From Bacteroidota bacterium (lineage in GTDB: Bacteria; Bacteroidota; Bacteroidia; UKL13-3): DNA of 64,000 bases. Made by a program: the position numbers and the translations under genes. Where the stretch lies: NCBI GenBank assembly GCA_947460345.1, contig CANHGM010000013.1, positions 18,610 through 82,609 on the forward strand, given 5' to 3'. The notes beneath the pieces are model-generated. The model had not been told where the DNA came from. It was given only the letters and a program-made list of their open reading frames with translations, and did no database searches. Below are positions 32,048 through 58,050 of the stretch, piece by piece. The stretch's first letter is position 1, and every line of letters begins with the position of its first letter.

Positions 32048-35000
32048 TTATTTAATATCAACTATTCTTAATGAAAGTGTTTCTCCATTTGCTGTTAAGC
32101 GAATAGTATATACACCGCCAGATAACTGATTTCCAGTATTAATTGGTAACTGATAATTTCCTGCAGATTGTTTTGCGTTAAGCAAAGTAGCGATTTTTCT
32201 GCCTGTGATATCAAAGATTTCAATATTAATTAATGAAGATTCTGTTATCGTGTAATTCAATGTAGTATTTCCATTGTATGGATTTGGATATACTTCAATT
32301 CCATTTACTGAAGTTGAAATGCTTTGAATATTGCTATTGATTACAGTTGAAGTTGAACTGCTATCTTTACAAGAATTAGTATTTGTTACAATTAATTTTA
32401 CATTATATGTACCATTAGTTGCATAAATATGAATTGGGTTTTGTTGTGAGCTATTTGAAGCGTCTCCAAAGTCCCAATTATATGAATTCCCAGCAGCAAC
32501 ATCTGTTGCAGTAAATTGAACATTAGTACTTAAGCTTTGCAAACGTGATGAAGTGAATGCACCACTCGGAGCTGTTAATAATGATATTTTAATACTATCT
32601 CTTGAAACACAACCATTAGCATCTGTTACATCTACAAAATAAGTTCCAGCTGTATTTACTGAAATAGATTGAGTTGAAGCTCCAGTATTCCAAGCAAATT
32701 GTGAACCTTGACCTGCATCAATTGAAGCAGATGTACCAGGACAGTAACCTTTATCTGCACCTAAATTAACAGGCGTAACATTAAATATACTTACGTTAGC
32801 TGTATCAGAATTAACACAACCATTTGCATCTGTAACTTTTACCCAAACTGAACCAGCAGTTGAAGTAGAGAATGTAGAACTTGACGTTCCATCACTCCAT
32901 AAATATGAACTATAAGAACCGCCATTGAAATTTGCACTTGAATTTGGACAAATAGTTTGGTCACTTATAGAAGGTTTAGGTAAAGCGTTTACTTTAATAA
33001 AACGAGAAACAACTGTGTCACATCCTACTGCACTATCTTTTACTGATATCATTATAATATATATAGAGTCCGCTTCAGCATTTGTAGGAGAGAATGTTAA
33101 GGTTGCATTGGAAGCACCAGGTGCAGATACCGAATATGTTCCTAATGATGGTGTTGTTCCATTGATAGTTGCAATTGATAATGATTTAATAATCCATGTT
33201 GTACCAAAACCACCATTACCAAATTGCGTTGGTGGAGTTAATTCATATTTAACAGAACTACCAATACATACACCATCAGGATTTCCTGAGGTTCCATTAT
33301 TAAAATTACCATTATATGGATTGCCTTTAATAATACTTACACCCATTGGAGCAGGTGTGAATGCTACCGATATACTACCATTTCCTGAACAACCACCTGG
33401 AGTGATAACGTCAACTGAATAGTTACCTGCGTTCGTTACATTTATTTTTTGAGTTGTATCTCCAGTATTCCATAAATATTTATATCCAGCACCAAAGTTA
33501 CCTGCATCTAATGATACACTAGTTCCACCGCAAGCTGTAATATTTGAACCCAAATTAACTGTAGGGGCAGTATAAATATTTACTTGAATTGAATCTGTTG
33601 AGGTTAATCCAGTTATAAAATCAGTGATAGTTGCATAGTATAAACCAGTTGCATATGTATTTAATGTATCATATGTTGAACCTGTATTCCATTCTACTGA
33701 ATAATTAGCATTTGAAGTAGGATTTGCATTTAATAATACATCTGAACAACTAGAAGTATCAGGACCAAGATCAATAGTAGGTTTCTCAGCTATTAATACA
33801 TTGTCAATATCAACAAAATATGCAGTTGCTGAATTATCTATACTCAAGAATACTGCAGAAACATTACTACCTGCGTTATTTCCTAAATCATATACAAAAT
33901 CTTGGTATGAATTAAAATTAGTGTTATTAGAATTGATATTGAAAACTTGATTAAATGTTTTACCACAATCGAACGTCAAATAAACTGCTATCGAATCGTC
34001 TTGACCTAACTGAGAAGAAGCTCTGTAGCTAAATTTGAATACAGATTTCGAAGTTAATGGACCTACAATTGGAGTATTACCAAATGCAACTGGTCTTGCA
34101 GCTGTCATATTTGCTCTTAAGCATCTTGTTCCACCTACTCCTGTAATAGCAGAAGTTATCAAGTTGTTTGAAGTATAAGAAGCAGGAATATTAGCTGCTG
34201 TATTGAAATCTTCAATATAATCTTGTGTAATTGGTTGAACGGTATTGATGGTGAATTTAGAAGTATCGTTAAATGCATCGCTATCACCAGCAGTAACTGC
34301 ATAAATTAAGAAATCATATGAACTAGCTAAGCTGCTCAAATCTAATGTACCAGCAAAGTTTACTGTCATTGTATCATTAGGTGCCATAATTCCACTTGTG
34401 ATAATTGTATCTAAAGTTGCTGTAGTTCCTCCAGAAACATTTACTGTTACTTGTAAATTATGAACTGAGAAATCTAAAGTATCTGTACCAACATTTTCTA
34501 ATAAAACAGAAACTGGTTCTGCATTACTATAACAAGCATAGTCACCAGGTGCCGTAACACTTCTAATTCCAGCATCAATTGCGAAAGGATTAATCAATAT
34601 AATATCATAATCTTCAGTTTCACCAAAAGTAGCAGAAGCACAAGGATCAATATTAGTATTGTTAAATACTTCTCTTACTCTTAATATATTATATCCAGAA
34701 GTAACTCCTGTTGGAATTGTAAATGTGATACTTCCAGCGGTATTAGCTGCCATGTTATTTAGTTGTCCAAGTTTTTCACTAGCTTCAAATGTACCATTTA
34801 AGTTATAATCTATCCATGCAGCTATATTGTTTCCTGCACCATTATATGAACCAGGAGCCACATCTAATGAATATGTTTGACCAATTAACAAAGGAGAACC
34901 AGCACCTGAATAATAGTTATAATAAGGAGCCGCAGAAGCACCAGTTTGATTATTAATAGCATTAGCTAAAACTACACTAGAAATAAAATCGCCAGATCCA

Positions 35001-36733
35001 GAACCAGTAGTGTAAGTTGGCTTACAATAGCAATCAGCAATTTTCTTAGTGATAACTGTTACAGTACTTGAAGTATCAGTGTTTCCAGAACAAGTAATAT
35101 AACAACGGTATGATAAGTTTGAAGATTGAGTTGTAGCAAATGATGCTTTGGTTGCACCAGTTATATTAGTCCATGAAGTACCATTGCTAGAAGATTGCCA
35201 TTGATACGTTTGACCATTACCATAAGTATTTGAATTTAATGACAAATTGAAAACAGTAGCTGGACATACGCTATCTAATGAAGAAACTGCTGTACCTGCT
35301 GTAGGTGTTGCATTACATTGTGGTAGTCTGATGTAAACTAAATAATCTTCAGTTTCACCATATCCATAGTTTCCACAAGAATTTACTAAAGCTGGATTAG
35401 TTGTTTCCATTAACACTACACGTAATCTTGTAACACCATTTTCAGCACTTGATGGAATAAGAACAGAATCTCCAACTACATTACCGTAGGCAACAGTTGC
35501 TCGGCTATATGTTCTTTGTAACATTACTCTTTCAGAGCTTTCGTCAAATTGGCCATCTTGGTTATAATCTATATAAACTTTAGCATGGCAAGTATAGAAA
35601 GTAGCAGATGAATTGATTTGTGTAACTTGCATAAAATACTTTGAATTTGCATCAAAAGTATCAGGCGTCAAATTAGTGAAATCACTATATGTATTTACTG
35701 AAGTACTATTTGATAATGCAGGTAGAGAATCTAATCCATTTGAGAAATTTCCAAATATAAATCTTCCGATATCATCATCTAATGTACTGTTAGATGCTGA
35801 TTTGCAATAACAATTATAAAATGGATTTAAATATATTAGTTTAGATGATGCTGTATCAGCACTTCCGCTACATTCTGTATAAAATCTGTAGTAAGTATCT
35901 GCAGTTATTGAAACAGTTAACGTTTTTTTAGTTGCACCATTGATATTTGTCCAAGTAGTTCCATCGCTAGATGATTGCCATTGAAATGTTTGACCACTTC
36001 CAAAAGTACCACCTGAAACAGATAAATTTAAATTAATACCTGGGCAGATAGAATCTTTTTGACTAAAAACCGAACCAGCTGTAGGTGTACCTGAACACGG
36101 AGCCAATGTATCAATGGTAACTGTATAGTCATGTGCCATACCTGAACCCATAGCTAAACAAGCATCTCCTGAACCATTTTGATTTCCAGATAAACGAGTT
36201 CTAACTCTCATTCCTGTTTGACCTAACAAAGCATTAGCAGGAACTGTTATAGTATTTGTAGCTGCTTGATTTGCAGTACTAGAGGTAGTTATTTGAACCC
36301 ACTCAGAAGCATCAAAAGTACCACTTTGATCATAGTCAATCCAAACTGACATGATAGCTGAAGAACTTGAGGTTACACTAATTGTGTATGTGTTGAAATT
36401 AGTTGTTCTGTATAAGGTTGCGGTAGTATTACCGTTAGCACTATATGAATTTGTTCTACTCACACCATTACAGGTAGATACAGAATTATCCAAAGTTGTA
36501 CCTTGAATATTCACATTGGTAATCATGTCAGCTGTTGAACAGTTACCTCCATTGGTATGTGAGGCTGTACAATACTGAGCATTTGAAAAATTTGCAGTTA
36601 TTAAAACAAACATACATGCCATGAGCATTTTGTTGAGTGTTGTCCTAATTAACTTGCTTCTAAAAATAGAGTAATTAATTTTCATTTGTATTTTTATTAA
36701 ATTATAGGGTCTACAAAGGTAACTATAACTCAA
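32048..36733 (-). CDS. Large (1561 aa) secreted surface protein with GEVED motifs, a PKD domain and a T9SS type A C-terminal sorting domain
   Basis: C-terminal type-A CTD (EVYPNPYNGNTTLNYTI...GGVYTIRLTANGETLSLRIVDIK). GETEDY motifs at two sites (GYGETEDYLVYI, TFGETEDYDIIL). PKD core YNWDFGDASNSSQQNPIHIY. Duplicated module ...QWQSSSDGTTWTNINGATK... / ...QWQSSSNGTSWTNITGATK.... Probable true start at the internal MKINYS Met (about 36688), which gives a signal peptide. Confidence 0.8.
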   Translation of the reverse strand: MSYSYLCRPYNLIKIQMKINYSIFRSKLIRTTLNKMLMACMFVLITANFSNAQYCTASHTNGGNCSTADMITNVNIQGTTLDNSVSTCNGVSRTNSYSANGNTTATLYRTTNFNTYTISVTSSSSAIMSVWIDYDQSGTFDASEWVQITTSSTANQAATNTITVPANALLGQTGMRVRTRLSGNQNGSGDACLAMGSGMAHDYTVTIDTLAPCSGTPTAGSVFSQKDSICPGINLNLSVSGGTFGSGQTFQWQSSSDGTTWTNINGATKKTLTVSITADTYYRFYTECSGSADTASSKLIYLNPFYNCYCKSASNSTLDDDIGRFIFGNFSNGLDSLPALSNSTSVNTYSDFTNLTPDTFDANSKYFMQVTQINSSATFYTCHAKVYIDYNQDGQFDESSERVMLQRTYSRATVAYGNVVGDSVLIPSSAENGVTRLRVVLMETTNPALVNSCGNYGYGETEDYLVYIRLPQCNATPTAGTAVSSLDSVCPATVFNLSLNSNTYGNGQTYQWQSSSNGTSWTNITGATKASFATTQSSNLSYRCYITCSGNTDTSSTVTVITKKIADCYCKPTYTTGSGSGDFISSVVLANAINNQTGASAAPYYNYYSGAGSPLLIGQTYSLDVAPGSYNGAGNNIAAWIDYNLNGTFEASEKLGQLNNMAANTAGSITFTIPTGVTSGYNILRVREVFNNTNIDPCASATFGETEDYDIILINPFAIDAGIRSVTAPGDYACYSNAEPVSVLLENVGTDTLDFSVHNLQVTVNVSGGTTATLDTIITSGIMAPNDTMTVNFAGTLDLSSLASSYDFLIYAVTAGDSDAFNDTSKFTINTVQPITQDYIEDFNTAANIPASYTSNNLITSAITGVGGTRCLRANMTAARPVAFGNTPIVGPLTSKSVFKFSYRASSQLGQDDSIAVYLTFDCGKTFNQVFNINSNNTNFNSYQDFVYDLGNNAGSNVSAVFLSIDNSATAYFVDIDNVLIAEKPTIDLGPDTSSCSDVLLNANPTSNANYSVEWNTGSTYDTLNTYATGLYYATITDFITGLTSTDSIQVNIYTAPTVNLGSNITACGGTSVSLDAGNFGAGYKYLWNTGDTTQKINVTNAGNYSVDVITPGGCSGNGSISVAFTPAPMGVSIIKGNPYNGNFNNGTSGNPDGVCIGSSVKYELTPPTQFGNGGFGTTWIIKSLSIATINGTTPSLGTYSVSAPGASNATLTFSPTNAEADSIYIIMISVKDSAVGCDTVVSRFIKVNALPKPSISDQTICPNSSANFNGGSYSSYLWSDGTSSSTFSTSTAGSVWVKVTDANGCVNSDTANVSIFNVTPVNLGADKGYCPGTSASIDAGQGSQFAWNTGASTQSISVNTAGTYFVDVTDANGCVSRDSIKISLLTAPSGAFTSSRLQSLSTNVQFTATDVAAGNSYNWDFGDASNSSQQNPIHIYATNGTYNVKLIVTNTNSCKDSSSTSTVINSNIQSISTSVNGIEVYPNPYNGNTTLNYTITESSLINIEIFDITGRKIATLLNAKQSAGNYQLPINTGNQLSGGVYTIRLTANGETLSLRIVDIK

Positions 36734-39576: not shown

Positions 39577-40482
39577 TTAAAATAAATAATTTACTCCGAG
39601 CAATACTCGAGCATTACTATGGGTGTTTCCATTAGACAAATATTCATATATTGGTTTTTGAATATTTAAAGTTGCAGAAATGTTTTTATAATAAATATCA
39701 CACCCCAAAACAGCTTGAATTGAAGTTCCACCAGTATAATTTACAACACCTGTATTTCTTCTTTTATCGTCACTAGTGGCATTTAAAATAATAGAAGTGC
39801 TAGGTATTATTAATAGTTTATTTAATGAAAACCAGTATCCCAATTTTGCTAAACAACTCCAACGGTTGCCAAACTTATATCCATTTACATTATACGTATT
39901 TAATTTATAATTAGCCTCTGATTGAAAACTAATATTATTTTTTCTAATTGAATACAATGTACTTATAGGTAAATCAAAAGACCCGCTTCCAAGTTGTATA
40001 TTGGGGTTAAGAAGCAATTCGTTTTTTAGTACTTGAAATTTACCAGTAGGTATTTTTATTCCAGCGTTCAACATCCATAAATGTTTTAACCGCTTATTTT
40101 GAGTTGAGTTTACTAGTATATAATTAAACAACGCTGTAGCGTCTCCTATTCCCGAAACAGATGAAACAACTCCATTGTCCCAAACTTTATTTTGAATAAA
40201 AGGAATATTAATCAATACTTGAATTTTAATGTTTTTAGCATATCTACACCATATATCAGAAGATGTACTGGTGTTTATTGTTTTTGTAGAATGAATCACA
40301 GGCACAATTGATAGTTGTTCAGTTGTAAACTTTATGTGGCTATACCTTAAACCTATAAAACTTTTTTGTATTTGAGGCAAAGAACCCATAAAATTTGCAG
40401 CAGTTGAATAACCACACATATCGCATGCTTGTGCCATTCCACTTAAGCATAACAATGCCCATGTGAAATAATTTTTAAACAT
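39577..40482 (-). CDS. Putative outer-membrane beta-barrel transporter-like protein with an N-terminal CxxC motif
   Basis: Signal peptide cleaved at AQA-CDMCG. Alternating beta-strand pattern and aromatic C-terminal residue (…GVNYLF). Resembles the 'transporter'/MetA-pathway-like OM barrels of Bacteroidota. Family unverified. Confidence 0.4.
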   Translation of the reverse strand: MFKNYFTWALLCLSGMAQACDMCGYSTAANFMGSLPQIQKSFIGLRYSHIKFTTEQLSIVPVIHSTKTINTSTSSDIWCRYAKNIKIQVLINIPFIQNKVWDNGVVSSVSGIGDATALFNYILVNSTQNKRLKHLWMLNAGIKIPTGKFQVLKNELLLNPNIQLGSGSFDLPISTLYSIRKNNISFQSEANYKLNTYNVNGYKFGNRWSCLAKLGYWFSLNKLLIIPSTSIILNATSDDKRRNTGVVNYTGGTSIQAVLGCDIYYKNISATLNIQKPIYEYLSNGNTHSNARVLLGVNYLF

Positions 40483-40553
40483 AAATTTAATTAAATGATA
40501 TTGTGAAACTTATCTATAGTAATTTATAGATACTTTTTGTTTTCGTTTAATAT

Positions 40554-40943
40554 TTAAACTATCTCGGGTGGATGAAAAAACCCGCGGCTAGGCATATAAT
40601 CATATAAATTATCCTTAATTGACATAAAGGATAACAAGGGTATAAACATATAATTATCTAAGCCTTTTTTGGTACTCAAAATAAAACTTTCTAGTTCTGG
40701 TATTTTGGGCTTAGCCTGCTCTATAGGCTTTGTCACATCTTGCGATTCAACCTCTTCTGTTTTGTCGAGTTGTTTTTTTAAATGACAACAACCACCACAT
40801 TTAAGTTCTGGTTTGCTTTTGTTTACACAAAATTCAGCTATTATCTTATCTTGATTTACTTTCCAATAAATCATTAAACAAGTTTTAGTTATCAGTTGAA
40901 AACTAAATACCAATAGCAACAATATTGCAAAACCTTTTTTCAA
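40554..40943 (-). CDS. Small Cys-rich membrane-anchored protein (possibly the HYC_CC_PP-type family of Bacteroidota)
   Basis: N-terminal TM/signal, Cys cluster ...FCVNKSKPELKCGGCCHLKKQ... and a PP near the C-terminus (FFHPPEIV). 129 aa. Family name recalled from memory, not verified. Confidence 0.45.
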   Translation of the reverse strand: MKKGFAILLLLVFSFQLITKTCLMIYWKVNQDKIIAEFCVNKSKPELKCGGCCHLKKQLDKTEEVESQDVTKPIEQAKPKIPELESFILSTKKGLDNYMFIPLLSFMSIKDNLYDYMPSRGFFHPPEIV

Positions 40944-42450: not shown

Positions 42451-42485
42451 AAATCCGCCCTAATTAGAGCGGATTTAATTTTTTT
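42451..42485 (-). terminator. Rho-independent (bidirectional) terminator after the 952-aa repeat protein gene
   Basis: Stem aaatccgc/gcggattt with a ~10-nt loop. T7/A7 runs on both sides. 16 nt after the stop at 42501. Confidence 0.5.
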
Positions 42486-42500
42486 ATTAAATTACTTTAT

Positions 42501-45359
42501 TTATTCAACAATGAATTTACTAGAAATAGTTCCTTCGTTGGTATTTAATTGTAATATATATATTCCTTTAGCAAAATTACTCACATCAATAGTTTCAACA
42601 TTATTCCCTAGAGATGCATTGTTGTTATTTTGATTGAACAACAATTTACCTTGCATATCATATATATGAATTTGCATAGGAGAGTATTTATTTAAGCTAT
42701 ATAATACTTGTAATTTTTCTCTAGTAGGGTTAGGATACAATTCAAATACTTTCACGATAGAAGATACTGAACCTATACCAACATAACTTGTACCATCTAC
42801 AGCAACTGTTTGTGTATTAGCTCCTTGGCTCGACACAATTACAGATCCGTTATGAGTACCAGCACTCGATGGGTTGTATCTCACATATATAATTTTAGTT
42901 GAAACTGAACCACCAGATGGTGATAATAACAACGAATTGTTAAACCCACTAGATGGACTTAATGACACTTCAAAATTAGTAGGTGATGAAACTGTAATAT
43001 CTCCTAACAAATTAGAACCATTCACTGCCATTGCTTGTGCTGCTGATGGAGTACCTAAAGTTGTAACAAAACTATTTGAAATATTAGTAGCTGTAACAAC
43101 AGGACCAGCTGGTAAAGTTGCAGTACCGCTTAAACTTACTGAAACAGTTGTAGCACCAGAAGAAACGTTGTCTATATCTCCAATATGATTACCTGCAGTA
43201 GTTGGGTTGTATCTAACATAGACAGTTCCATTGTTTACTTTTCCACCAACAGGATTAAAGTATACTGAACCACCAAAACCTGTAGTTGAACTTAATGACA
43301 CCTGAAAATCAGCTGGTGCTGAAACCAATAACAAACCAGTAAGGTCAGAACCAATAACTGTATATAATTGAGCAGTTGATGGTGTACCCACTTGAGTAGT
43401 GAATGGATTTAATAAAGAAACTGAAGTAGTAATTACAGGTGTTATAGTTCCTGAAGTTGTTCCATTTACCAATACGTTTTGAGTAGTTGCTCCCAAAGAA
43501 ACACAAGTGATATTTCCTGAATGAGGCCCTGAAACAAATGGATTATAACGAACATATACAGTAGTCGAATTTACTGTACCTTGATTCTCATTTAATACTA
43601 CAAAGCTAGAGAAACCAGAACCTGAACTTAATGAAACCTCAAATTCATTTGGTGCAGTTACTACAATATCAAAATTTAAATTCACACCTGAAACTTTAAA
43701 GCTTTGTTCTGAACTGGTTGTTCCAACACTTGTTGAAAAGGCAGTTAGTGATGAAACACTTGCAGTAATTGTTGGATTGGTATTAACTGTAGCAGAACCG
43801 CTGATATTTATACCTTTAGAATTAGCACCTGATGAAGAACAAATAAGATCTCCATTATGGTTACCAGCAACAGAAGGGTTATATCTAACATATATATTAG
43901 TACTTCCAACTGTACCTGATGATGGTGATAATGATACACTAGAACCGAAGCCACTAGTTGTATTTAATGACACTTCAAAATGTGTTGGTGCAGACACTAT
44001 TAAATTAGCGGTCAAATTTGTTCCAGACACACTAAAGTTTTGTGTAGAACTAGGTATACCTACATAAGTTGAAAAAGCATTTAAAGAATTTACACTTATA
44101 GTAATATTGGGTGTATTGTTAACCGATGCATTTCCAGTAACAGCTACATTTTTAGTAGTAGCTCCAGTTGAAGTACAAGCAATATTTCCATTATGAGAAC
44201 CTGAAGCTGAAGGATTGTATCTAACATATACTGTTCCATTAGATACCACGCCTGAATTAGGTGAAAAAGATACGCTACTTCCAAATCCAGAATTTGAATT
44301 TAATGAAACTTCAAACTGAGAAGGTGCTGTTACCACAAGATTAGAAGATAAATCACTGCCTGAAACTGTAAAGTTTTGAACAGAGCTAGCTGTTCCTACG
44401 GTGGTAGAAAATGCACTTAATGAAGACACACTTGTTACTATAGTAGGTATTGGGCTACCTGTTGAATTTCCACTCACTGCAACATTTTGGGTAGTTGCAC
44501 TAGTTGAAGTACAAGTAACATTGCCATTATGAGAACCGGCTGCTGAAGGATTGTATCTAACATATACTGTTTGATTGTTTACTTTCCCGTTTGATGGAGA
44601 AAATGATACAGAACTTCCAAAGCCAGAACCGCTGCTTAATGATACTTCAAATTGAGAAGGTGCTGATACAATTAAATTAGATACTAAATCATTACCCGAC
44701 ACAGTGAAACCAACCGAACTGCTTGGAGTTCCAACAGTTGTAGTAAATGCATTTAAAGCACTCACTGATGTAATAATCACGGGTGACGGATTTCCAGTTG
44801 TACCGCTTACTGCCACACTTTGTGAAGATGCCCCAGAAGATGTACAGCTAATATTTCCACTATGCTGACCAGAAGCTGATGGATTATATCTAACATAAAT
44901 AACAGTTGTGGCAACACTTCCTGAAATAGGAGTAAGATTTAAAGATGAACCATAACCACTTCCAGATGCTAAAGATATTTCAAAACTACTTGGAGCACTT
45001 AAAGATATATTTCCAGTTAAGTTAGTTCCTGAAATAGAAAAACTTTGATTAGAAGAGGGTGTTCCTACAGTTGTAGTAAAGGTTGACAAATTAGCGGTAA
45101 CATATATAGTTGGTTTGTTTCCTGAACCTCCAGTAGAGCCAACAGGATCAACTTGTTGAAAACCTTGAGTAAGAATAATCCCACCTGAGGTTGCAGTGGT
45201 TACACCACCTGCTTCTCCTACAGTAAAGGATACTTGCATTCCTCCAGCTTGAACATGCTCACCAGCTGAGCCAAGCACTGAAGGTGATAGACTTTGAGCC
45301 TGGCTACTAAAAGCAAGACTAAAGCCTAGTATGAATAATAAAAGAAATCTTTTCATCAC
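42501..45359 (-). CDS. Secreted surface protein built from seven tandem ~111-aa repeats, with a T9SS type A C-terminal sorting domain
   Basis: Signal peptide. Seven repeats of the pattern PxIxTSVSSLxAFSTxVGTxSSxQxFxVSGxxLxxNLxVSAPxxFEVSLxxxSGFGSSVSxSP..G.V....VYVRYNPSxxGxHNGNxxCxSxGATTxNVAVSG. C-terminal CTD ...FELYPNPTREKLQVL...GIYILQLNTNEGTISSKFIVE. Confidence 0.8.
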   Translation of the reverse strand: MMKRFLLLFILGFSLAFSSQAQSLSPSVLGSAGEHVQAGGMQVSFTVGEAGGVTTATSGGIILTQGFQQVDPVGSTGGSGNKPTIYVTANLSTFTTTVGTPSSNQSFSISGTNLTGNISLSAPSSFEISLASGSGYGSSLNLTPISGSVATTVIYVRYNPSASGQHSGNISCTSSGASSQSVAVSGTTGNPSPVIITSVSALNAFTTTVGTPSSSVGFTVSGNDLVSNLIVSAPSQFEVSLSSGSGFGSSVSFSPSNGKVNNQTVYVRYNPSAAGSHNGNVTCTSTSATTQNVAVSGNSTGSPIPTIVTSVSSLSAFSTTVGTASSVQNFTVSGSDLSSNLVVTAPSQFEVSLNSNSGFGSSVSFSPNSGVVSNGTVYVRYNPSASGSHNGNIACTSTGATTKNVAVTGNASVNNTPNITISVNSLNAFSTYVGIPSSTQNFSVSGTNLTANLIVSAPTHFEVSLNTTSGFGSSVSLSPSSGTVGSTNIYVRYNPSVAGNHNGDLICSSSGANSKGINISGSATVNTNPTITASVSSLTAFSTSVGTTSSEQSFKVSGVNLNFDIVVTAPNEFEVSLSSGSGFSSFVVLNENQGTVNSTTVYVRYNPFVSGPHSGNITCVSLGATTQNVLVNGTTSGTITPVITTSVSLLNPFTTQVGTPSTAQLYTVIGSDLTGLLLVSAPADFQVSLSSTTGFGGSVYFNPVGGKVNNGTVYVRYNPTTAGNHIGDIDNVSSGATTVSVSLSGTATLPAGPVVTATNISNSFVTTLGTPSAAQAMAVNGSNLLGDITVSSPTNFEVSLSPSSGFNNSLLLSPSGGSVSTKIIYVRYNPSSAGTHNGSVIVSSQGANTQTVAVDGTSYVGIGSVSSIVKVFELYPNPTREKLQVLYSLNKYSPMQIHIYDMQGKLLFNQNNNNASLGNNVETIDVSNFAKGIYILQLNTNEGTISSKFIVE
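42800..45100. repeat. Seven tandem ~333-bp DNA repeats inside the 952-aa gene
   Basis: The anchor ggRttRtatctaacatatac recurs at 42879, 43203, 43540, 43878, 44219, 44550 and 44881 with a period of 324-341 nt. The protein-level VYVRYNP repeats match. Confidence 0.7.
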
Positions 45360-45385
45360 ATTATATAATTTTAATGACGATTAAA

Positions 45386-47218
45386 CTATTTCAATATTGA
45401 TTTAGAAGCATCAAGTTTTGATAAATCTATAATATCATTTTTAGTATCTGGTTTAGTATTTTCAGATACTGGTACTCTTGTTAATTTAGAAATGCTAAGA
45501 GATTTAGGTTTACCAAATAATTCAGGGTGTATATATTTACCTTTTTCAATTCCTTTTTTCTCAACTTCTGCAACAATTCTATTTGAATTAGCCCAAGCAT
45601 CTTGTCTAATACCAGTAACTTGCCAACTAACTTTTACATTGGGTTGGTTTGTTTTAATTACAAATTGATTGTCTTTAACTTCTTCACCAACCATTGCTTG
45701 AGCAAAAGAACCTATTACGGTTAATTGGTATCTAAAATCTTTGTTTTCTGCCATAAAATAATCAGGTAGTTTTACAGTTACTGTTCCATTTGCATCAGTA
45801 GTAGTATTACCATTATATATGTTCATCATATCTGGGCTTTCAACAAAACTATGAATTAAATATTTATTTTCTGGATCTGTTGGGTGATCAATTTTAAAAG
45901 AACCACCTGCTTTTGCTAAGTTACCAGTAACTTCAACATTACCATCAAAATACCCAGCATAAGTTCCAACACTTCCAGTTCCATTAACATTTGCATTCAC
46001 ACCTATTACATAGCTTGGATTGTTAGAACCTTTTTCAGCATATACTTCTATACCAGTTGCTACTACACTTCCAGCTAAGCTATAAAATGTTCCACCAATA
46101 TTAAATGCACCATTAGGATCATTAGAAAAACTAGTAATACCAGTACATGCTTTAGTATTTCCAATATTATAAGAACCAACCGAAACTGCATATACACCTT
46201 GACCATCTGTTGATGAAAAGTATCCTCCAGCATTACTTCTATAATATACATTAGATAAACTTCTATGAGTTGTTGGAGTTGCAAAACCAACAACACCAAT
46301 GGCATTGGTATCGCCTGAACTGGCAAAATAACCACCATAATTTAATCCATAAGCACCAGTTACACCACCTCTAACACCAATGTTTATCCCTTTTGCACCT
46401 GAAACTGCAGTTACTCTGCCGTAAGTACCATAATAAGAAGAATCTTGTGCGTTCAATACTTGATTAAAAGAACCAATCCATCCGCCTTCAAAATTACCAC
46501 CAATACCATAAGAATCTTGTGGTTTTGATTTTCCATATACTCCAGAAGCATCATATTGTCCAGTTCCTGTATACAAACCTTGAACACCTATAGCATTGTT
46601 GCCATTATAATTAGTTTCGAATGAACCTGAAACAGGCAATGAACCTGTAGTTTGTAATCTATAATTGCTATTTGGATTTACAGTACCTAAACCAACATTT
46701 GTCCCATTATCATAAAGTAGAGAAACTGTGATAGCATTAGCACCTGTAAATTTAGCAACATAATTTGCAGTTCCACTAGAAGCAGTGACACCTCCACTTC
46801 CTCCACTACCTGACTTTTCTGCATATAATGCATAAGGCACGCTCATCATTTGAGTACTGCTCATAGTGGTAAAATTGTTGCCATTATTAGAATCCAATTC
46901 TAATTTTAGATATTTATTTCCAGCACTCCAATTTATTGAAGAAAAAGTTCCAGATTGTGCAGAACCACCTCCAATAATTAAGTTAAATAGACCATAAGCG
47001 TTTGTAGAAACAGAATGTTTCTCCACATAATCAGCAGTTCCAGATGCAGAGCCCGCTAGTATGCTTATTCTTACACCCAATGTTTTGTTTGCCATTAAAG
47101 TTCCAGAAGAACTTCTAGCAACTGCTTGATAATTAATTCCAGTAGGTGCTTGTGCAGCAAGATTAAAAGTTCCTGCTACTAGTGTTAATAAAAGCAATAG
47201 TAAATTGATTTTTTTCAT
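45386..47218 (-). CDS. Secreted glycine-rich, beta-helix/tail-fibre-like protein with a conserved C-terminal domain of unknown function (no T9SS CTD)
   Basis: Signal peptide (MKKINLLLLLLTLVAGTFNLAAQ). Conserved N-terminal block PTGINYQAVARSSSGTLMANKTLGVRISI...SVPYALYAEKSG. Long Gly/Ser/Asn/Tyr-rich middle region. C-terminal block KIDHPTDPENKYLIHSFVESPDMMNIYNG...FRYQLTVIG. 26-nt gap to the repeat-protein gene downstream. Confidence 0.6.
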   Translation of the reverse strand: MKKINLLLLLLTLVAGTFNLAAQAPTGINYQAVARSSSGTLMANKTLGVRISILAGSASGTADYVEKHSVSTNAYGLFNLIIGGGSAQSGTFSSINWSAGNKYLKLELDSNNGNNFTTMSSTQMMSVPYALYAEKSGSGGSGGVTASSGTANYVAKFTGANAITVSLLYDNGTNVGLGTVNPNSNYRLQTTGSLPVSGSFETNYNGNNAIGVQGLYTGTGQYDASGVYGKSKPQDSYGIGGNFEGGWIGSFNQVLNAQDSSYYGTYGRVTAVSGAKGINIGVRGGVTGAYGLNYGGYFASSGDTNAIGVVGFATPTTHRSLSNVYYRSNAGGYFSSTDGQGVYAVSVGSYNIGNTKACTGITSFSNDPNGAFNIGGTFYSLAGSVVATGIEVYAEKGSNNPSYVIGVNANVNGTGSVGTYAGYFDGNVEVTGNLAKAGGSFKIDHPTDPENKYLIHSFVESPDMMNIYNGNTTTDANGTVTVKLPDYFMAENKDFRYQLTVIGSFAQAMVGEEVKDNQFVIKTNQPNVKVSWQVTGIRQDAWANSNRIVAEVEKKGIEKGKYIHPELFGKPKSLSISKLTRVPVSENTKPDTKNDIIDLSKLDASKSILK

Positions 47219-47244: not shown

Positions 47245-47252
47245 CAAATATA
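47245..47252 (-). promoter_or_regulatory. Bacteroidota-type -7 promoter box (TATATTTG) for the 45386..47218 / 42501..45359 transcription unit
   Basis: The reverse complement of caaatata matches the TAnnTTTG consensus, 26 nt upstream of the ATG at 47218. A TTG lies about 20 nt further upstream. Confidence 0.3.
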
Positions 47253-47429
47253 AATCAAAATTTAAGTTAACACTATTATCATTTCTTTAAAATTCACACA
47301 ATTTAATAATAGAATTTATAAAGAACTTGCAACTGTTGGCTTCATTATAAAAGTTAAAAACAATATTTCTTTTGACTTTTGATACTAAAGTAGTGATATT
47401 CGCGTTTAATGATTCTTTAAAATGACTAT

Positions 47430-50210
47430 ATGATATTAAACCTTAACAAAACTATTCTTTTCATATGTGTACTAATGTTTGAGTTATATAATATCCAAGC
47501 ACAAAAAATATCAGGTTATTTGTTAGATAGCTCTATTTCTAAACAGCTTGACCATGCATCTGTATCTATTTTAAACTCAAAAGATTCAACTTTTATATAT
47601 TCTACAAGAACAAATATTAACGGATTATTTGTTATACCCAAAGTGGATTCTGGAAGATATATATTATTTATTAGTCATCCTCAATATGCCGATTTCATTG
47701 ATTATATTACCACTTCAGGGAAAGATAATCAAGCATTGGGCACTATTCAAATGTTTAGAAAAGAATTGATGTTACAAAATGTAGTAGTGGTTGGTAAACG
47801 AAAAGCCATTGTAATAAAGGGAGATACAGTTGAGTTTGCAGCAGATAGTTTTATTAACAGAGAAGGAGCCACAGTTGAAGATCTCTTAAAAAAACTTCCT
47901 GGAATGACCGTAGACAAAAATGGGAAAGTTACCGCATTTGGAAAAGAAGTTGAGAAGGTATTGGTTGATGGGGAAGAATTTTTTGGCGATGACCCAACAA
48001 TGGCCACAAAAAACTTGCAAGCCCAATCTGTAGATAAAGTGCAGGTGTTTGACCAACAAAGTGAACAAGCACAACAAACTGGAATTGATGATGGTCAAAA
48101 GACTAAAACTATTAACATTCAGTTGAAAGAAGAAGCTAAAACAGGATATTTGGGGAAAGTTTCAGCCTCGGGTGGTTCCACTGATAATCTAAATATATAT
48201 GACACCCAAGGCATGCTCAATTATTTTAAGAAAAAACGGAAAATTTCAGTTTTTGCACTAAGTGATAATTACAACTATGGAGGACTTTCATGGGATGATG
48301 AGCAAAAATATGGTGGAATGGAATATGAATATAGTGATGATGGCAATTATAGTGTTTACAAGATAATGGATGAAGATGACAACATTGGAACCAAAGGGTT
48401 TCCAGTTAACAAATCAGCTGGTCTTCATTATTCTGATAATTTAAAAAACGGTAAACATAAAATCACTGTAAATTACAGATACGCTGAAATGCAAGTAAAT
48501 TACACAGAAAACAACTTTGCTAAATATATTTATGCCGATTCGTTATATAACGAAAACAAGAGTACCAACCACAGAATAGATAGGAACAAAAACACTTTTA
48601 ATTTAAAATATGAGTATAAAATAGATTCGTTGTCTTATATAAGACTTAACATTGCAAGTACACTTATCAATAAAAAATCACACAAGGATATATTGAGTCA
48701 AAGTTTTGCAAACCTTATTGACACTGTTAATGATAGCAAAAGAAATACGACAAGTGATGGGCAAAATCAAAGTTTCAACATCGGAGTTTTATATAATAAA
48801 AAATTTAAGCTGAAAGGTCGATCAATGAATATCAAAATGAATCAGTCAGCTAATCAAAATGAAAACGATGGCTTGTTATTTTCTGAAAACAACTACTATA
48901 ACTCTGCGTCAACCCCTTACCAATTGATTAATCAAAACAAGCTAAACAAAGCTAAATCCACCAGCTATTCTTTACAAATAAACTATACTGAACCTTTGGG
49001 TAAAAAACAGTGGTATACTGAAGCAACTTATTCTATAAACAATTCTATTCAAAATAATTCTTTACTATCATACAATCTTCCAACAAACACTTTAGATAGT
49101 GTATTTAGCAATAATATTTCATATAACATAATTAACCAAAAAGGTGGTTTATATATTAAGGCTAATAAAAAGAAATTTGACATAAGATTTGGAACAAGTT
49201 ATAACCTTACTAACCTCAATCAATTTAATGCATTCACAAAAAAAACTATTAACTATCCTTTTGTCAATATTATTCCTGAAATGTCATTTACATGGAAATT
49301 GAACAAACAAAAAGACTTAACATTTAGATATAATGGAAGAACGAACCAGCCAACCATAAACCAAATACAACCGCTAAAAGATAACTCAGACCCATTTAAT
49401 ATCATTCAAGGGAATCCCAATCTGAAACAAGAATTTAAGCAAAACTTTTCACTAAGATATAATTTTTACAAAGTACTAAATGGAACAAGTCTATGGAGTG
49501 GCTTAGATTATAGCACCACTGCAAACGAAATTATATATACCAACAATATAAATGAACAAGGAATTAGAAGTAGCCAATACACTAATTTAGATGGCAACTA
49601 CAATATCAGATTATATGGCTATTTTGGAAAGAAATTGAAAAAACTAAATAGCTATTTGGGTTATAATATCAATGGTAGTTACTATCACAACAATAACTTT
49701 GTAAATACTTTAGCTAATTTAAGCGAGACCTATTCTTTTTCTAATACTTTTAGTTTTTCGTTCGATAAAGAAAAATGGCCAGAGATATCTCTAAATTATA
49801 GACCTTCTTATAATTACAATGTATCCTCCATAAATAAAGATATTCAAACAAAATACTGGCAACAATTTGTTGATTTTTCATTTTATTGGAAGCTAAAAAA
49901 AGACTATGAAATTGGAACAGACATAGAAGTTACCTCACGTCAAAAACTAAACTTAAGTGACAAAAACAATAATTTTATTATATGGAATGCCTATATCGGT
50001 AAAAAAGTATTTAAAGACAAATCAGGCACTCTACAAATAAGCTGTGACGATATTCTTAAACAAAGGATTGGTTTTAATAGATATATAAACTTGACTACTA
50101 TTAATGAAAACTATTATACTCTTATCACAAGATACTGGATGGTAAAATTTATATGGACATTTGCTGATAAATCAACCAAAGCTAAACAAAAAAAAGAAGA
50201 TGAGGAATAA
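47430..50210 (+). CDS. Outer-membrane beta-barrel family protein (OMP_b-brl_3-like) with an N-terminal carboxypeptidase-regulatory-like domain and plug-like region
   Basis: Signal peptide. CarbopepD_reg-like start (KISGYLLDSSISKQLDHASVSILNSKDSTFIYSTRTNINGLFVIP). Plug-like DTVEFAADSF...VEDLLKKLPGMTV. About 600-aa Asn/Tyr-rich barrel with a terminal aromatic stretch. 926 aa. Confidence 0.75.
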   Translation: MILNLNKTILFICVLMFELYNIQAQKISGYLLDSSISKQLDHASVSILNSKDSTFIYSTRTNINGLFVIPKVDSGRYILFISHPQYADFIDYITTSGKDNQALGTIQMFRKELMLQNVVVVGKRKAIVIKGDTVEFAADSFINREGATVEDLLKKLPGMTVDKNGKVTAFGKEVEKVLVDGEEFFGDDPTMATKNLQAQSVDKVQVFDQQSEQAQQTGIDDGQKTKTINIQLKEEAKTGYLGKVSASGGSTDNLNIYDTQGMLNYFKKKRKISVFALSDNYNYGGLSWDDEQKYGGMEYEYSDDGNYSVYKIMDEDDNIGTKGFPVNKSAGLHYSDNLKNGKHKITVNYRYAEMQVNYTENNFAKYIYADSLYNENKSTNHRIDRNKNTFNLKYEYKIDSLSYIRLNIASTLINKKSHKDILSQSFANLIDTVNDSKRNTTSDGQNQSFNIGVLYNKKFKLKGRSMNIKMNQSANQNENDGLLFSENNYYNSASTPYQLINQNKLNKAKSTSYSLQINYTEPLGKKQWYTEATYSINNSIQNNSLLSYNLPTNTLDSVFSNNISYNIINQKGGLYIKANKKKFDIRFGTSYNLTNLNQFNAFTKKTINYPFVNIIPEMSFTWKLNKQKDLTFRYNGRTNQPTINQIQPLKDNSDPFNIIQGNPNLKQEFKQNFSLRYNFYKVLNGTSLWSGLDYSTTANEIIYTNNINEQGIRSSQYTNLDGNYNIRLYGYFGKKLKKLNSYLGYNINGSYYHNNNFVNTLANLSETYSFSNTFSFSFDKEKWPEISLNYRPSYNYNVSSINKDIQTKYWQQFVDFSFYWKLKKDYEIGTDIEVTSRQKLNLSDKNNNFIIWNAYIGKKVFKDKSGTLQISCDDILKQRIGFNRYINLTTINENYYTLITRYWMVKFIWTFADKSTKAKQKKEDEE

Positions 50211-50928
50211 TATATATATATTCATTTTAAGTATGATGAGCTATTTAACTTCTGCTCAAACATTTATTTATAATGGTTTGATAGAATATGAATGCCGGAC
50301 AAACAATCATAAACTTATGAAAGAAGAAAGCCCTGAATGGTTTGAATCTAGTAAAGATAGAATTCCAAAATATTCGATTGTATTCAATAATTTAATCTTT
50401 GATACATGCCGAACTTTGTATTATCCCGGCAAAGAGCCAGAACAAAAACCACCTTTTTGGGGAGATGAGGGTATTCCAGATGATTATATATTCTCTGATT
50501 TAAGTAAACATATATACGTTGGACAAAAAGAAGTTTTTGATCAAACATTCCTTATACAAGATTCTACCAAAAACATAAAATGGAAACTGACTCAAGAGAC
50601 TCGTGACATAGCAGGTTTTGAATGCAAAAAGGCCACAACCATCATTATGGATTCAGTATTCATCATTGCATATTATACCGATAAGATAATTTGTAACGGG
50701 GGGCCTTTGAGTGTAAACGGATTACCAGGGATGATTTTAGGCATGGTTGTTCCCAGAATTCATTCCACATGGTTTGCTATTAAGGTAACTCCTCAAATAA
50801 TAGCCGAAGACAAAAAATTAATCGCACCTAAAAAAGGAAAGAAAGCTACCAATCTTGAACTTTCAGTTAAGCTCAGAGAAACCTTTAAAGAATGGGGAAA
50901 AAGTTACATTATTAGTTTTATGCTTTAG
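50200..50928 (+). CDS. GLPGLI-family protein
   Basis: Contains the family-defining motif (here NGLPGMILG). About 243 aa with a signal peptide when started at the internal ATG 50200 (MRNNIYIFILSMMSYLTSAQ). The listed ORF start at 50161 is a TTG extension. Overlaps the upstream OMP gene by 11 nt. Confidence 0.75.
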   Translation: MRNNIYIFILSMMSYLTSAQTFIYNGLIEYECRTNNHKLMKEESPEWFESSKDRIPKYSIVFNNLIFDTCRTLYYPGKEPEQKPPFWGDEGIPDDYIFSDLSKHIYVGQKEVFDQTFLIQDSTKNIKWKLTQETRDIAGFECKKATTIIMDSVFIIAYYTDKIICNGGPLSVNGLPGMILGMVVPRIHSTWFAIKVTPQIIAEDKKLIAPKKGKKATNLELSVKLRETFKEWGKSYIISFML

Positions 50929-55254: not shown

Positions 55255-58050
55255 ATGAAAAAGATAAGTATCATTTTAGCATCGGCAATGTTTGTTGTTG
55301 CTGGACTGGGTTTTGGTTATTTTCAAAAAAAGGAAATAAAAAACTATCAACCTAGAATCAGCAAATTAGCTATTGTAGAAGAAGAAGCGGAAGAAGAAGA
55401 AGCAAAAGGAATGTTCGAATTCTTCAAAATGTTTAGAAACAACCCAACAACAGGCACTGTTTCTTTAGAAGACATTAAACTTGCACAACAAGGGTTGAGA
55501 AATATGTCAAACCTTCGTGGAAGTTTACCACTTAATTGGAGTGAGTTAGGCCCAGACAACGTTGGAGGTAGAACTAGATGCATTCTAATTGACAATCAAG
55601 ATGCTACTGGAAATACAGTATATGCTGGTGGCGTTAGTGGTGGTTTATGGAAATCAACCAATGGAGGAGCTTATTGGAATAAGATAAGTGATATACAAGA
55701 AAATTTAATAGTATCAAGCATATGCCAAACTCCTGATGGGACTTTATTTTATGGTACAGGAGAAGATGGTTTTTATTTTTCGAGTGGACAAGGCCAAGGA
55801 GGAGGTTTTTTTGGAGGGGGAGCATTTAAGTCATCAGATGGTGGTAAAACATTTAAATTATTATCAAACACTAATCCATCTGCATCAGGTGGAACTAAGT
55901 GGTTATCAGTTCAATCTATGGCTGCTCATCCAACAAAAAACAGAGCATATGCATGTTTAGCTAATGGTTTTTATTTAACAGATGATGGTGGGACAACTTG
56001 GACAAAACCAAGCACTTCAGGTGCACCAGGAAACGCTACTATACAAGAGGTTAAGGTAGATAAAAATGGCGTAGTTTATGTAACCAATTCGACCAATGTT
56101 TGGAGATCTGATGATGGTGGCGATAACTATGTAAATATTACTCCTAAAAACACAAACACTACTGGTGGTGCATTTAGCAATTCTAGAAGAATTTCAATAG
56201 CTGTTGGATATTCAAATACTAATTATGTTTATATAATGGTTGCTGACAATGCTAGTAAATTAGCTGGAATTTTTCAAAGTACAGATAAGGGTAGCAATTG
56301 GAGTAGAATAGCTAGTAGGTCTCAGAACGGAGTAGACTTTGACCCATTAGCCAGTACTGCTAGTGCTCAAGGAGTATATGACAACGTAATTGGTGTAGAC
56401 CCAACTAATGAAAACAGAGTATTTGCTGCGGGTGTAGATTGGTGGGAATGGTTAAATCCAGCAGTTTACCCTAACAACCCAAAAAGTGGGTGGACAAATC
56501 CTACATCACAATTTGGAAGCAAATTCAATAATTTGTATATTCACTCTGATGTTCATTTTATTGCATTTGATTCGAAACATGGTTCGCCATTTATTACTTA
56601 TATAGGTACTGATGGAGGTATAACTAAATCAGTAGATGGTTGTAACACTTTTGCAACTCTGAATAGAGGATACAATGTAACTCAATTTTATGGAATGGCA
56701 GTTAATCCATTGTCGAGCAGTAGAGGATGGGAAAAGAAATATTTTGGTGGAACACAAGATAATAGTTGTGTATTAATAACCGGAAAAGGAAATACAGCAC
56801 AAACAAGTGTTACAATTTCTGGAGGTGATGGTTTTCAGTGTGAAGGTTCTCAAATATATCCTGAAATTATGTTCTATGGTTCTCAAAATGGTGGTTATAT
56901 GCGTTCAGGCAATGGAGGTGTTGATGCACAAAGAATGTATGATTGTAGAACAATTTGGCAAATGGATAATGCTTATGGATATGGTTCTGCAAATAAGTGT
57001 GAAGACAAAACAAGTGGATTTATAGATTATTTCAATGTTCCAATGAGACTTAAAGAAAAATGGAGCGATACTACTTCATTAATGGCTATTTGTGCTAATC
57101 GTCAAAATAAAACAGGAGGTGCTATATATATAACAAGAGATGCGATAGATTTGAAAAAACAAACAGGAGCTTTATGGTTTAATTTGTATGAAAATAACGG
57201 GTATTTTCATAAAATTGAAATATCAAATGATTTAAAATCAATATATGCAGCTACTGGTTCTTCATTAATTCGTATTCAAGGATTTGATACTATTACCTTC
57301 CCTACAGATACTAAAGATTCATCATGGAAAGTAGATCAAAACAGTATTCAAGTTAAGACTTTAAACAATTTTGGTGGTAGATTTATTACAGGTATAGCTG
57401 AAGATAAAAATGATCCAGCCCATCTTGTTGTTTCTTTAGGTAACTATGGTTCAACTGACCATGTGTATGAATCAAAAGACAGTGGAACTACTTGGGTAAA
57501 TATATCTGGAAATAATATGTTAAACTTCCCTGTTTATGATGTAATTATCTCTAATGAAAACTCAAAAGTAATTGTTGTTGCTACTGAATTTGGAATATTT
57601 GCAACTAAAGATGGAGGATTAACTTGGACTGAACAAAACAATGGCATGGCAAGAGTACCAGTATTACAAATTCGTCAATACCAAGATAAACCTTGGGAAG
57701 GTCCTACATTATACATAGCTACTCATGGTAGAGGCTTATTTAAATCAAATTCGCTCACTACAGGAATAGAAGTAAATAATACATCAAGTATCAAAACAAG
57801 ACTTTCTGTTTTTCCTAATCCGACAAGTGATGTAGTAAATATTGAATACTCAGCAAAACAAACAGGTACTGCTTATATTACCGTTGTTGATATAAAAGGG
57901 AATTTAATATACAATGCTGATTATAGAATTGCATTGCCAGGAAATCAAAGAATTAGTTTAAATACAGCAAATTGGTCTAGTGGTAATTATGTGATTTATT
58001 TAAAAACTAATGATGGAGAGCAATATCAAAAGTTGAGCGTTATTAAATAA
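55255..58050 (+). CDS. BNR/Asp-box repeat (sortilin/VPS10-like beta-propeller) protein with a T9SS type A C-terminal sorting domain
   Basis: At least 8 Asp-box repeats S/T-x-D/N-G-G-x-T/N-W/F (STNGGAYW, SSDGGKTF, TDDGGTTW, SDDGGDNY, STDKGSNW, SKDSGTTW, TKDGGLTW …). C-terminal CTD LSVFPNPTSDVVNIEY...GNYVIYLKTNDGEQYQKLSVIK. N-terminal TM/signal. Confidence 0.8.
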   Translation: MKKISIILASAMFVVAGLGFGYFQKKEIKNYQPRISKLAIVEEEAEEEEAKGMFEFFKMFRNNPTTGTVSLEDIKLAQQGLRNMSNLRGSLPLNWSELGPDNVGGRTRCILIDNQDATGNTVYAGGVSGGLWKSTNGGAYWNKISDIQENLIVSSICQTPDGTLFYGTGEDGFYFSSGQGQGGGFFGGGAFKSSDGGKTFKLLSNTNPSASGGTKWLSVQSMAAHPTKNRAYACLANGFYLTDDGGTTWTKPSTSGAPGNATIQEVKVDKNGVVYVTNSTNVWRSDDGGDNYVNITPKNTNTTGGAFSNSRRISIAVGYSNTNYVYIMVADNASKLAGIFQSTDKGSNWSRIASRSQNGVDFDPLASTASAQGVYDNVIGVDPTNENRVFAAGVDWWEWLNPAVYPNNPKSGWTNPTSQFGSKFNNLYIHSDVHFIAFDSKHGSPFITYIGTDGGITKSVDGCNTFATLNRGYNVTQFYGMAVNPLSSSRGWEKKYFGGTQDNSCVLITGKGNTAQTSVTISGGDGFQCEGSQIYPEIMFYGSQNGGYMRSGNGGVDAQRMYDCRTIWQMDNAYGYGSANKCEDKTSGFIDYFNVPMRLKEKWSDTTSLMAICANRQNKTGGAIYITRDAIDLKKQTGALWFNLYENNGYFHKIEISNDLKSIYAATGSSLIRIQGFDTITFPTDTKDSSWKVDQNSIQVKTLNNFGGRFITGIAEDKNDPAHLVVSLGNYGSTDHVYESKDSGTTWVNISGNNMLNFPVYDVIISNENSKVIVVATEFGIFATKDGGLTWTEQNNGMARVPVLQIRQYQDKPWEGPTLYIATHGRGLFKSNSLTTGIEVNNTSSIKTRLSVFPNPTSDVVNIEYSAKQTGTAYITVVDIKGNLIYNADYRIALPGNQRISLNTANWSSGNYVIYLKTNDGEQYQKLSVIK

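Follow-up and report, generated by a model that had tools for sequence, protein, structure and literature searches.

We analyzed a window of 64,000 nucleotides (nt) from a Bacteroidota bacterium (GTDB lineage Bacteroidia; UKL13-3; contig CANHGM010000013.1 of assembly GCA_947460345.1, forward-strand positions 18,610 to 82,609), in which two adjacent minus-strand genes between positions 42,501 and 47,218 encode a fibre protein and, downstream of it, a partner ending in a type-A C-terminal sorting domain (CTD) of a type IX secretion system (T9SS). The pairing of such a CTD-less fibre with a protein composed of a short N-terminal element, here called the handle, and a CTD recurs in many Bacteroidota genomes, and the partner appears from sequence comparisons to track the N-terminal domain of the fibre (fibN) rather than its C-terminal domain (fibC). 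We propose that the two genes form a surface-fibre module, consisting of a Sec-exported fibre and a T9SS-dependent tether, a reading to which we give an even chance. The original prediction had also viewed the pair as a surface-fibre or adhesin module; the conserved pairing of the genes upholds this, while the ~50-amino-acid (aa) handle of the downstream protein had been overlooked.

The affiliation of the partner was revealed by its two ends. When the partner, taken at 952 aa, was compared by phmmer with the open reading frames (ORFs) of 82 fetched loci (labelled L001 and so on), the matches were ORFs of ~170 aa adjoining fibre genes, and these aligned to both ends of the query only (aa ~2 to 70 and the CTD), with nothing between. 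Each begins with a signal peptide and a handle of ~50 aa (consensus, S[IL]xP…GG…W[ST][VI]GE…[IV]LTQGFQQP) and ends, after a linker of ~15 aa, in a type-A CTD. A profile search gave at least 1,131 members of this small partner family, nearly all of 157 to 209 aa, whose sole Pfam annotation is PF18962 and which are named "hypothetical" or "T9SS type A sorting domain-containing protein"; no Pfam model covers the handle. By hidden Markov models (HMMs), the window partner carries the handle at aa 22 to 70 and the CTD at aa 871 to 951, with a fibre gene 26 nt upstream, as befits a member of the handle-CTD family, and the type-A CTD of the original prediction was recovered at aa 874 to 951 by both PF18962 (59.4 bits; cutoff, 27) and TIGR04183 (57.7 bits; cutoff, 23). 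Because the small ORFs match its handle and CTD ends only, the partner is an expanded handle-CTD protein in which seven immunoglobulin (Ig)-like domains have been inserted between the two. It departs from the family norm in these seven repeats and in lying downstream, not upstream, of the fibre gene. Only 6 of 120 Ig-repeat homologues carry the handle, and all six are fibre-linked orthologues; the insertion is restricted to this small clade.

We counted the linkage of the two genes with custom HMMs for fibN, the fibre neck, fibC, the handle and the CTD over the 82 loci, restricting the counts to phyla that have T9SS. In some 30 independent loci, a handle-CTD gene directly adjoins fibre genes. 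It was present in the same-strand cluster of 37 of 56 fibN-bearing fibre genes, mostly directly upstream of the fibre gene with a gap of 1 to 40 nt, versus 0 of 7 genuine fibN-less ones (Fisher p = 0.0012). In the reverse direction, four handle-CTD proteins were taken from the partner search; for three, a fibN-to-fibC gene lies directly downstream, while at the fourth locus (L088) the handle gene is followed by a porin-like gene and no fibre. Some proteins have fibN but no fibC (380 to 1339 aa; L006:6665-7975, L020:1758-5777 and L034:6778-7920) and sit between a handle-CTD gene and a complete fibre gene. These fibN-only proteins, too, follow handle genes, and fibN thus serves other C-terminal ends as well. 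At L041:2513-10383, a single handle-CTD gene is followed by three consecutive fibre genes, and L089:960-10516 holds two tandem handle and fibre pairs and then a third fibre gene, layouts that suggest fibre "cassettes" sharing one handle type. In four Ignavibacteria-like loci (L016:5397-5921, L038:8583-9107, L022:9901-10431 and L061:2449-3003), a ~175-aa CTD protein adjoins the fibre gene; its divergent N-terminal element (…GG.…INGTVGQP…GFWNT) is probably a second handle type missed by the handle HMM.

The handle and fibN also vary together. Mirror-tree distances over 22 nonredundant handle and fibre pairs correlated most strongly between handle and fibN (r = 0.58), followed by the handle and its own CTD (0.44) and by the CTD and fibN (0.42), while all correlations with fibC were ~0.23 to 0.25. 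The partial Mantel correlation of handle and fibN, given CTD and fibC, was 0.47 (p = 2e-4). In addition, the handle subtype follows one fibN residue, "NYQG" versus "NYQA/S", in 25 of 26 cases.

Orthologous loci preserve the pair as a unit. Fibre and partner measure 610 and 951 aa, with seven repeats, in the window and in L001; 612 and 843 aa, with six repeats, in L003; 596 and 727 aa, with five, in L085; and 520 and 610 aa, with four, in L083/L084. In all of these orthologous pairs the fibre-then-partner order is kept, with gaps of 18 to 26 nt and unrelated flanking genes. The window holds the longest-stalk version among the loci examined, a rare long-stalk variant of the pairing. Its relative L001 is 94 to 98% identical, with 100% identity in fibN and neck, 98.4% in the partner, 96% in fibC and 90% in the shaft, the shaft being the fast-evolving part of the fibre.

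The fibre belongs to a very large family of mosaic fibres: 7,432 of 8,000 scored candidates matched in a homology search that was saturated, and the family size is thus a lower bound. Its members, like the partner proteins, are almost all listed in public sources as "hypothetical" or under generic domain names. Most of what had been read from the fibre sequence proved correct, namely, a Sec-type signal peptide, no T9SS CTD (no match by Pfam, TIGR04183 or the custom CTD HMM), conserved N and C blocks, seen at aa 25 to 135 and 421 to 575 across an alignment of 120 homologues, and a Gly/Ser/Asn/Tyr-rich middle (50% of aa 191 to 420). The full protein had no match in Pfam, PHROGs or PDB sequences, whether searched as a single sequence or as a profile. 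However, fibN aligned, over aa 18 to 89 of the protein, to positions 8 to 79 of 162 of NCBIfam NF053851 (Bdello_MAT_N) with an E value of 1.9e-6 and 27.8 bits, below the cutoff of 60 for that model. Because 79 of 80 fibre-family members also match NF053851 (best E value, 2.9e-13), fibN is a remote homologue of the N-domain of the Bdellovibrio mosaic adhesive trimer (MAT) fibres, the fibre itself not being a member of that subfamily.

Between the end domains lie a neck (family consensus, NYxxKFT…DNGxxVGIGT at aa ~143 to 190), which recurs in most fibres, and the shaft, which has the lowest occupancy and identity of all regions in the 120-homologue alignment. Collagen triple-helix repeats occupy the shaft position in 14 of 80 relatives, and for this reason we consider the fibre probably homotrimeric; the 610-aa protein itself has no Gly-X-Y repeats detectable by Pfam (PF01391). 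In an AlphaFold2 monomer model both end domains reached a predicted local distance difference test score (pLDDT) of >90 and the shaft remained at <50, a pattern to be expected when the chain of an intertwined trimer is modelled singly. The pectate-lyase-type beta-helix proposed for the middle region could not be shown, given no Pfam match and a monomer shaft of such low confidence. Foldseek with the full-length model gave no PDB match at an E value of ≤1e-3, only weak tailspike matches at 1.6e-3 or worse, because the low-confidence shaft dilutes the signal. No C-terminal Peptidase_S74 domain was found by Pfam and NCBIfam in the 610-aa protein, nor in 80 relatives. A few relatives carry the newer Pfam identifiers PF27613 and PF27624.

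At the other end, fibC spans ~155 aa with 31 invariant alignment columns. Modelled alone (pLDDT, 88.8) and compared with a library of viral structures, it matched 22 proteins at an E value of ≤1e-3, the best of them, 24 to 31% identical, including a tail-fibre-like protein of a Prochlorococcus phage, a minor tail protein of an Arthrobacter phage and phage proteins with collagen repeats. The fibC model is similar to the domains at the C-terminal end of tail fibres and tailspikes of phages and of pyocin fibres, and by this structural similarity the fibre falls into the class of proteins with phage-like tips. The domain was found in 13,330 cluster representatives (50% identity clusters), almost always at the C terminus, and at 60 to 70% identity in Acidobacteriota, Ignavibacteria, Planctomycetota, Gammaproteobacteria and Anaerolineae.

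In the mechanism that we propose, the partner would be exported by the T9SS, its CTD would be removed, and its new C terminus would be fixed to the cell surface, as for other type-A cargo, which is covalently anchored to anionic lipopolysaccharide (PMC9143113); the same chemistry is presumed here. The handle would then stand at the outer end of an Ig-like stalk, for which we estimate a length of 25 to 30 nm, and would bind fibN, so that the lectin-like fibre tip would face outward, toward a presumed ligand. A separate adaptor makes sense because, with a CTD of its own, the fibre would be anchored by its tip end. To cross the outer membrane, the fibre possibly travels as the partner's passenger. 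A bolder version makes the handle-CTD protein a trans-acting T9SS signal as well as an anchor, with the folded, CTD-less trimer crossing the outer membrane bound to the handle and staying tethered afterwards; the T9SS does transport folded proteins (PMC9251779), yet we regard this version as rather doubtful. If true, passenger export through the T9SS would have its first case, the class of "surface element" holding MAT-type N-domains, left open by the Bdellovibrio work, would be named, and the insertions of four to seven Ig-like units would represent an evolutionary tuning of the distance between fibre and cell. The module in its general form would explain how an N-terminally attached fibre is displayed by a secretion system that anchors C termini, would provide a concrete candidate for the binding target of the MAT N-domain, and would offer a natural case of stalk-length tuning, with partners bearing 0, 4, 5, 6 or 7 Ig-like domains.

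Several points weigh against the fibre-and-tether module. The fibre is without a known signal for outer-membrane export, and we found no precedent for T9SS passenger export or for adaptors of CTD-less cargo in the literature searched. No handle neighbor was detectable for 19 of the 56 fibN-bearing fibres, some of which lie at contig ends or have divergent partners. The signal linking handle and fibN is covariation, which is not proof of contact, and it could stem in part from the DNA linkage of handle and fibN combined with recombination inside fibre genes. Fibres with both fibN and fibC but no handle-CTD neighbor occur in Acidobacteriota (L035, L036, L040, L045, L050, L052, L055 and L066), that is, outside the phyla with T9SS; because these have no partner, fibN can work without one. 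Finally, fibC is far more conserved than a usual receptor-binding tip and may instead be a nucleus of folding or trimerization. Beside the Acidobacteriota fibres, no conserved small partner was evident in the noisy ORF lists of these high-GC loci, apart from recurrent winged-helix regulator-like ORFs; a divergent winged-helix (CadC/OmpR-like) regulator ORF lies upstream of the fibre in L027, L035, L045 and L070.

The partner might be an export adaptor or chaperone only, lending its CTD in trans to a fibre that is then released or held otherwise. Gene adjacency and handle-fibN covariation would be accounted for equally by this and by the tether, the fibre does have a signal peptide but no CTD, the ability of the T9SS to move folded proteins is in its favor, and a single handle gene can be followed by two or three genes for fibres (L041). 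However, seven Ig-like spacers suit a stalk and hardly a transient adaptor, trans-acting CTDs are equally without precedent in the literature searched, and a trimer together with its partner would make a bulky passenger. We consider this explanation unlikely.

Less probable again is that the genes encode two independent surface proteins which share an operon, for instance, adhesins used together without binding each other. Each protein has its own signal peptide, Ig-repeat adhesins with a CTD are common among T9SS cargo, and operons often group genes by function alone. Nevertheless, the usual partner, a 170-aa protein with nothing but the 50-aa handle and the CTD, is hard to picture as an adhesin, the adjacency spans families and follows fibN specifically, and the confinement of the handle to the six fibre-linked orthologues likewise speaks against independence.

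The repeats themselves bear on a third alternative, which is implied by the original prediction, namely, an adhesin of variable size in which near-identical DNA repeats undergo frequent recombination, strains differing in repeat number as a result. Seven repeats of ~111 aa are indeed present, with a Y[VI]RYNP core every 111 to 112 aa; they match the Pfam Ig-like families CFAP65/HYDIN/Filamin/Cep192 and score 38.3 bits against the NCBIfam choice-of-anchor D model (NF012200), for which the cutoff is 45. However, they are not near-identical 333-bp DNA repeats, as had been claimed, since unit pairs are only 54 to 71% identical in DNA and 42 to 71% in protein. The longest exact word shared between units was 30 nt (units 2 and 3) and 8 to 18 nt for other pairs, and Tandem Repeats Finder reported just 1.9 copies at 74% for the array. 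The supposed anchor of ~20 nt consists merely of the codons of the VYVRYNP core, several positions of which differ between units. The predicted variation in repeat number holds among orthologues, which have 4, 5, 6 or 7 repeats, but within the species-level cluster the number is fixed: all five full-length variants of the 90%-identity cluster, on at least 12 contigs, are 951 aa long with seven repeats. P0368 (733 aa) was considered as a five-repeat strain variant and was rejected, being an N-terminal truncation at a contig end.

A comparison of units between species was also at odds with frequent recombination. The first repeat of the window partner (r1) is 80 to 86% identical to r1 of the five- and six-repeat orthologues, r6 shares 86% identity with r5 in the six-repeat proteins, and the last unit pairs with the last unit; in the four-repeat protein P0127 the unit nearest to r1 is r2 (78%), and r4 has no close counterpart (best match, 59%). 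Because the units are thus positionally orthologous, the array is old, with units only rarely gained or lost, and mid-array. At the level of strains the recombining-repeat model is largely refuted, and overall we hold it to be highly improbable.

Least probable of all, indeed barely credible, is that the fibre gene is what remains of a tail-fibre gene from a prophage or tailocin, without a cellular role: fibC is like phage tail-fibre C termini, but the fibre has a Sec signal peptide and no PHROG match, phage genes are absent from its flanks both in the window and in related loci, its gene is linked to that of a T9SS cargo protein, and its family has thousands of chromosomal members. A prophage origin of the fibre was rejected on the flanking genes and the strict fibre linkage, and so was a PorA-like signalling role of the small CTD protein.

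Among known systems, the MAT fibres of Bdellovibrio bacteriovorus are alike in being phage-like fibres of mosaic build that have a signal peptide and a homologous N-domain. Their N-domain has been placed beside the cell, bound to a surface element not yet identified (Caulton et al. 2024, PMC10769870). In contrast to MAT fibres, where the tip is variable, the tip is the most conserved part here and the shaft varies; furthermore, the S74 domain is absent, and the host is a T9SS-bearing member of the Bacteroidota with a dedicated CTD partner gene. The C termini of phage tailspikes, phage tail fibres and R-type pyocins (PDB 7eea, 6cu2/6cl6, 4mtm and 9rpt) share the fold of fibC, which also stands at the C-terminal end of the fibre, and some of the phage relatives have collagen repeats. 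Unlike these phage fibre tips, the fibre described here is chromosomal and has a Sec signal peptide, and its fibC is unusually conserved across phyla. With T9SS type-A cargo such as Porphyromonas gingivalis RgpB (PMC9143113, PMC11285876), the partner shares a bona fide type-A CTD and a signal peptide. However, known T9SS cargo proteins carry their own functional domains, while the usual partner has only its handle and CTD and apparently works in the service of a second protein, one that lacks a CTD. Proteins of the choice-of-anchor D or HYDIN-CFAP65 type resemble the partner in their Ig-like repeats, arrays of which are frequent in T9SS proteins; among such surface proteins, the handle and the repeats are combined only in the fibre-linked orthologues.

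BclA of the Bacillus exosporium offers a further, works-like analogy. It has an N-terminal attachment region, a collagen-like middle of variable length and a conserved C-terminal trimerizing beta-sandwich, and it is attached via a separate basal-layer anchor protein, as the fibre would be by its partner. BclA belongs to a Gram-positive spore surface and has no secretion-system signal, and a sequence relation to the fibre is not expected. No description of a fibre paired with a handle-CTD protein was found in the literature searched; taken singly, T9SS cargo and fibres of the MAT-like or phage-like kind are known, but their pairing through a protein made of a ~50-aa handle and a CTD is apparently undescribed.

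The layout of the locus is given in the table. The ORF coordinates agree with the two minus-strand genes of the original prediction, 610 aa and then 952 aa with a 26-nt gap, and the predicted -7 box (47252..47245) and T-run hairpin (42476..42451) do flank the pair.

Features of the fibre and partner locus (positions in the 64,000-nt window; both genes read on the minus strand)
Feature	Position	Strand	Basis or remark
-7 box TATATTTG (TAnnTTTG, Bacteroidota-type promoter)	47245..47252	-	read from sequence; function putative
Fibre gene, 610 aa, MAT-like mosaic fibre family	45386..47218	-	ORF
Fibre Sec signal peptide, aa 1-24, likely cleavage between AA and QAP, giving Gln at +1	47147..47218	-	predicted cleavage site
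fibN, N-terminal beta-sandwich domain, aa 25-135, proposed docking domain	46814..47146	-	NF053851 match, pLDDT >90
Neck, aa 143-190, motif NYVAKFT…DNGTNVGLGT	46649..46792	-	conserved alignment block
Variable shaft, aa 191-420, presumed trimeric	45959..46648	-	composition, low conservation
fibC, C-terminal beta-sandwich tip domain, aa 421-575, phage tail-fibre/tailspike C-terminal type	45494..45958	-	
Variable C-terminal fibre tail, aa 576-610, not a CTD	45389..45493	-	low conservation, no CTD HMM match
Intergenic gap, 26 nt	45360..45385	-	no terminator, no TAnnTTTG box within
Partner gene, 952 aa from GTG: handle, seven Ig-like repeats, type-A CTD	42501..45359	-	ORF
Handle, aa 22-70, QSLSPSVLGSAGEHVQAGGMQVSFTVGEAGGVTTATSGGIILTQGFQQ	45150..45296	-	signature of small T9SS partner family
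Seven diverged Ig-like repeats, ~111 aa each	42771..45113	-	proposed stalk/spacer
Repeat units	44781-45113, 44448-44780, 44112-44444, 43776-44108, 43440-43772, 43104-43436, 42771-43103	-	
T9SS type-A C-terminal sorting domain, aa 871-952	42504..42749	-	PF18962 E 4.5e-16, TIGR04183 E 8.7e-16
Intrinsic-terminator-like hairpin, 11 pairs (5 G-C), then TTTTGTGTTT	42451..42476	-	25 nt past partner stop

The distance from TATATTTG to the ATG of the fibre gene is 26 nt, and homology with L001 begins at 47261, which places the box inside the conserved module. The gap between the two genes has neither a terminator nor a TAnnTTTG box, and their cotranscription is likely. The partner probably starts at the ATG at 45356, giving 951 aa, and the gap is then 29 nt; this is the start of its database twin P0121, which is 100% identical over 951 aa and begins one codon downstream of the GTG. 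The Sec signal peptide of the partner reads MKRFLLLFILGFSLAFSSQA, with predicted cleavage before QS. In both proteins a Gln directly follows the predicted signal-peptidase site, at aa 23 of the fibre (47150-47152), where it is invariant in 121 sequences and P25 is nearly so, and at aa 22 of the partner (45294-45296), where it is nearly invariant in the family. Such a residue would fit the "Q-rule" of Bacteroidota, that is, an N-terminal pyroglutamate.

The source organism is an uncultured bacterium of low GC content (32%) and bears a T9SS, as judged from further CTD proteins and a PorP/SprF gene nearby. These are two T9SS type-A CTD proteins, of 1561 aa and 931 aa (Sortilin/Vps10-like), and a PorP/SprF-family gene, at 32048-36733 (-), 55255-58050 (+) and 58674-59756 (-); L001 likewise has PorP/SprF and additional T9SS cargo. 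Upstream of the pair, a 3.66-kb segment (47262-50918) is missing from L001, where 168 nt stand instead. This segment encodes a 926-aa outer-membrane protein with CarboxypepD_reg and OMP_b-brl_3 domains (47430..50210, +) and a 255-aa ORF (50161..50928, +), and its breakpoint lies 9 nt upstream of the -7 box of the fibre gene. On the other side, at 39577-40943 (-), the window encodes two proteins without a Pfam match, one of 301 aa, in which a signal peptide precedes a CDMCG motif, and a Cys-rich one of 129 aa (CGGCCH). Genes of 301 aa and 129 aa, likewise without a Pfam match, are called nearby in L001 in reversed relative order, and the two window proteins may be a small metal-related outer-membrane pair.

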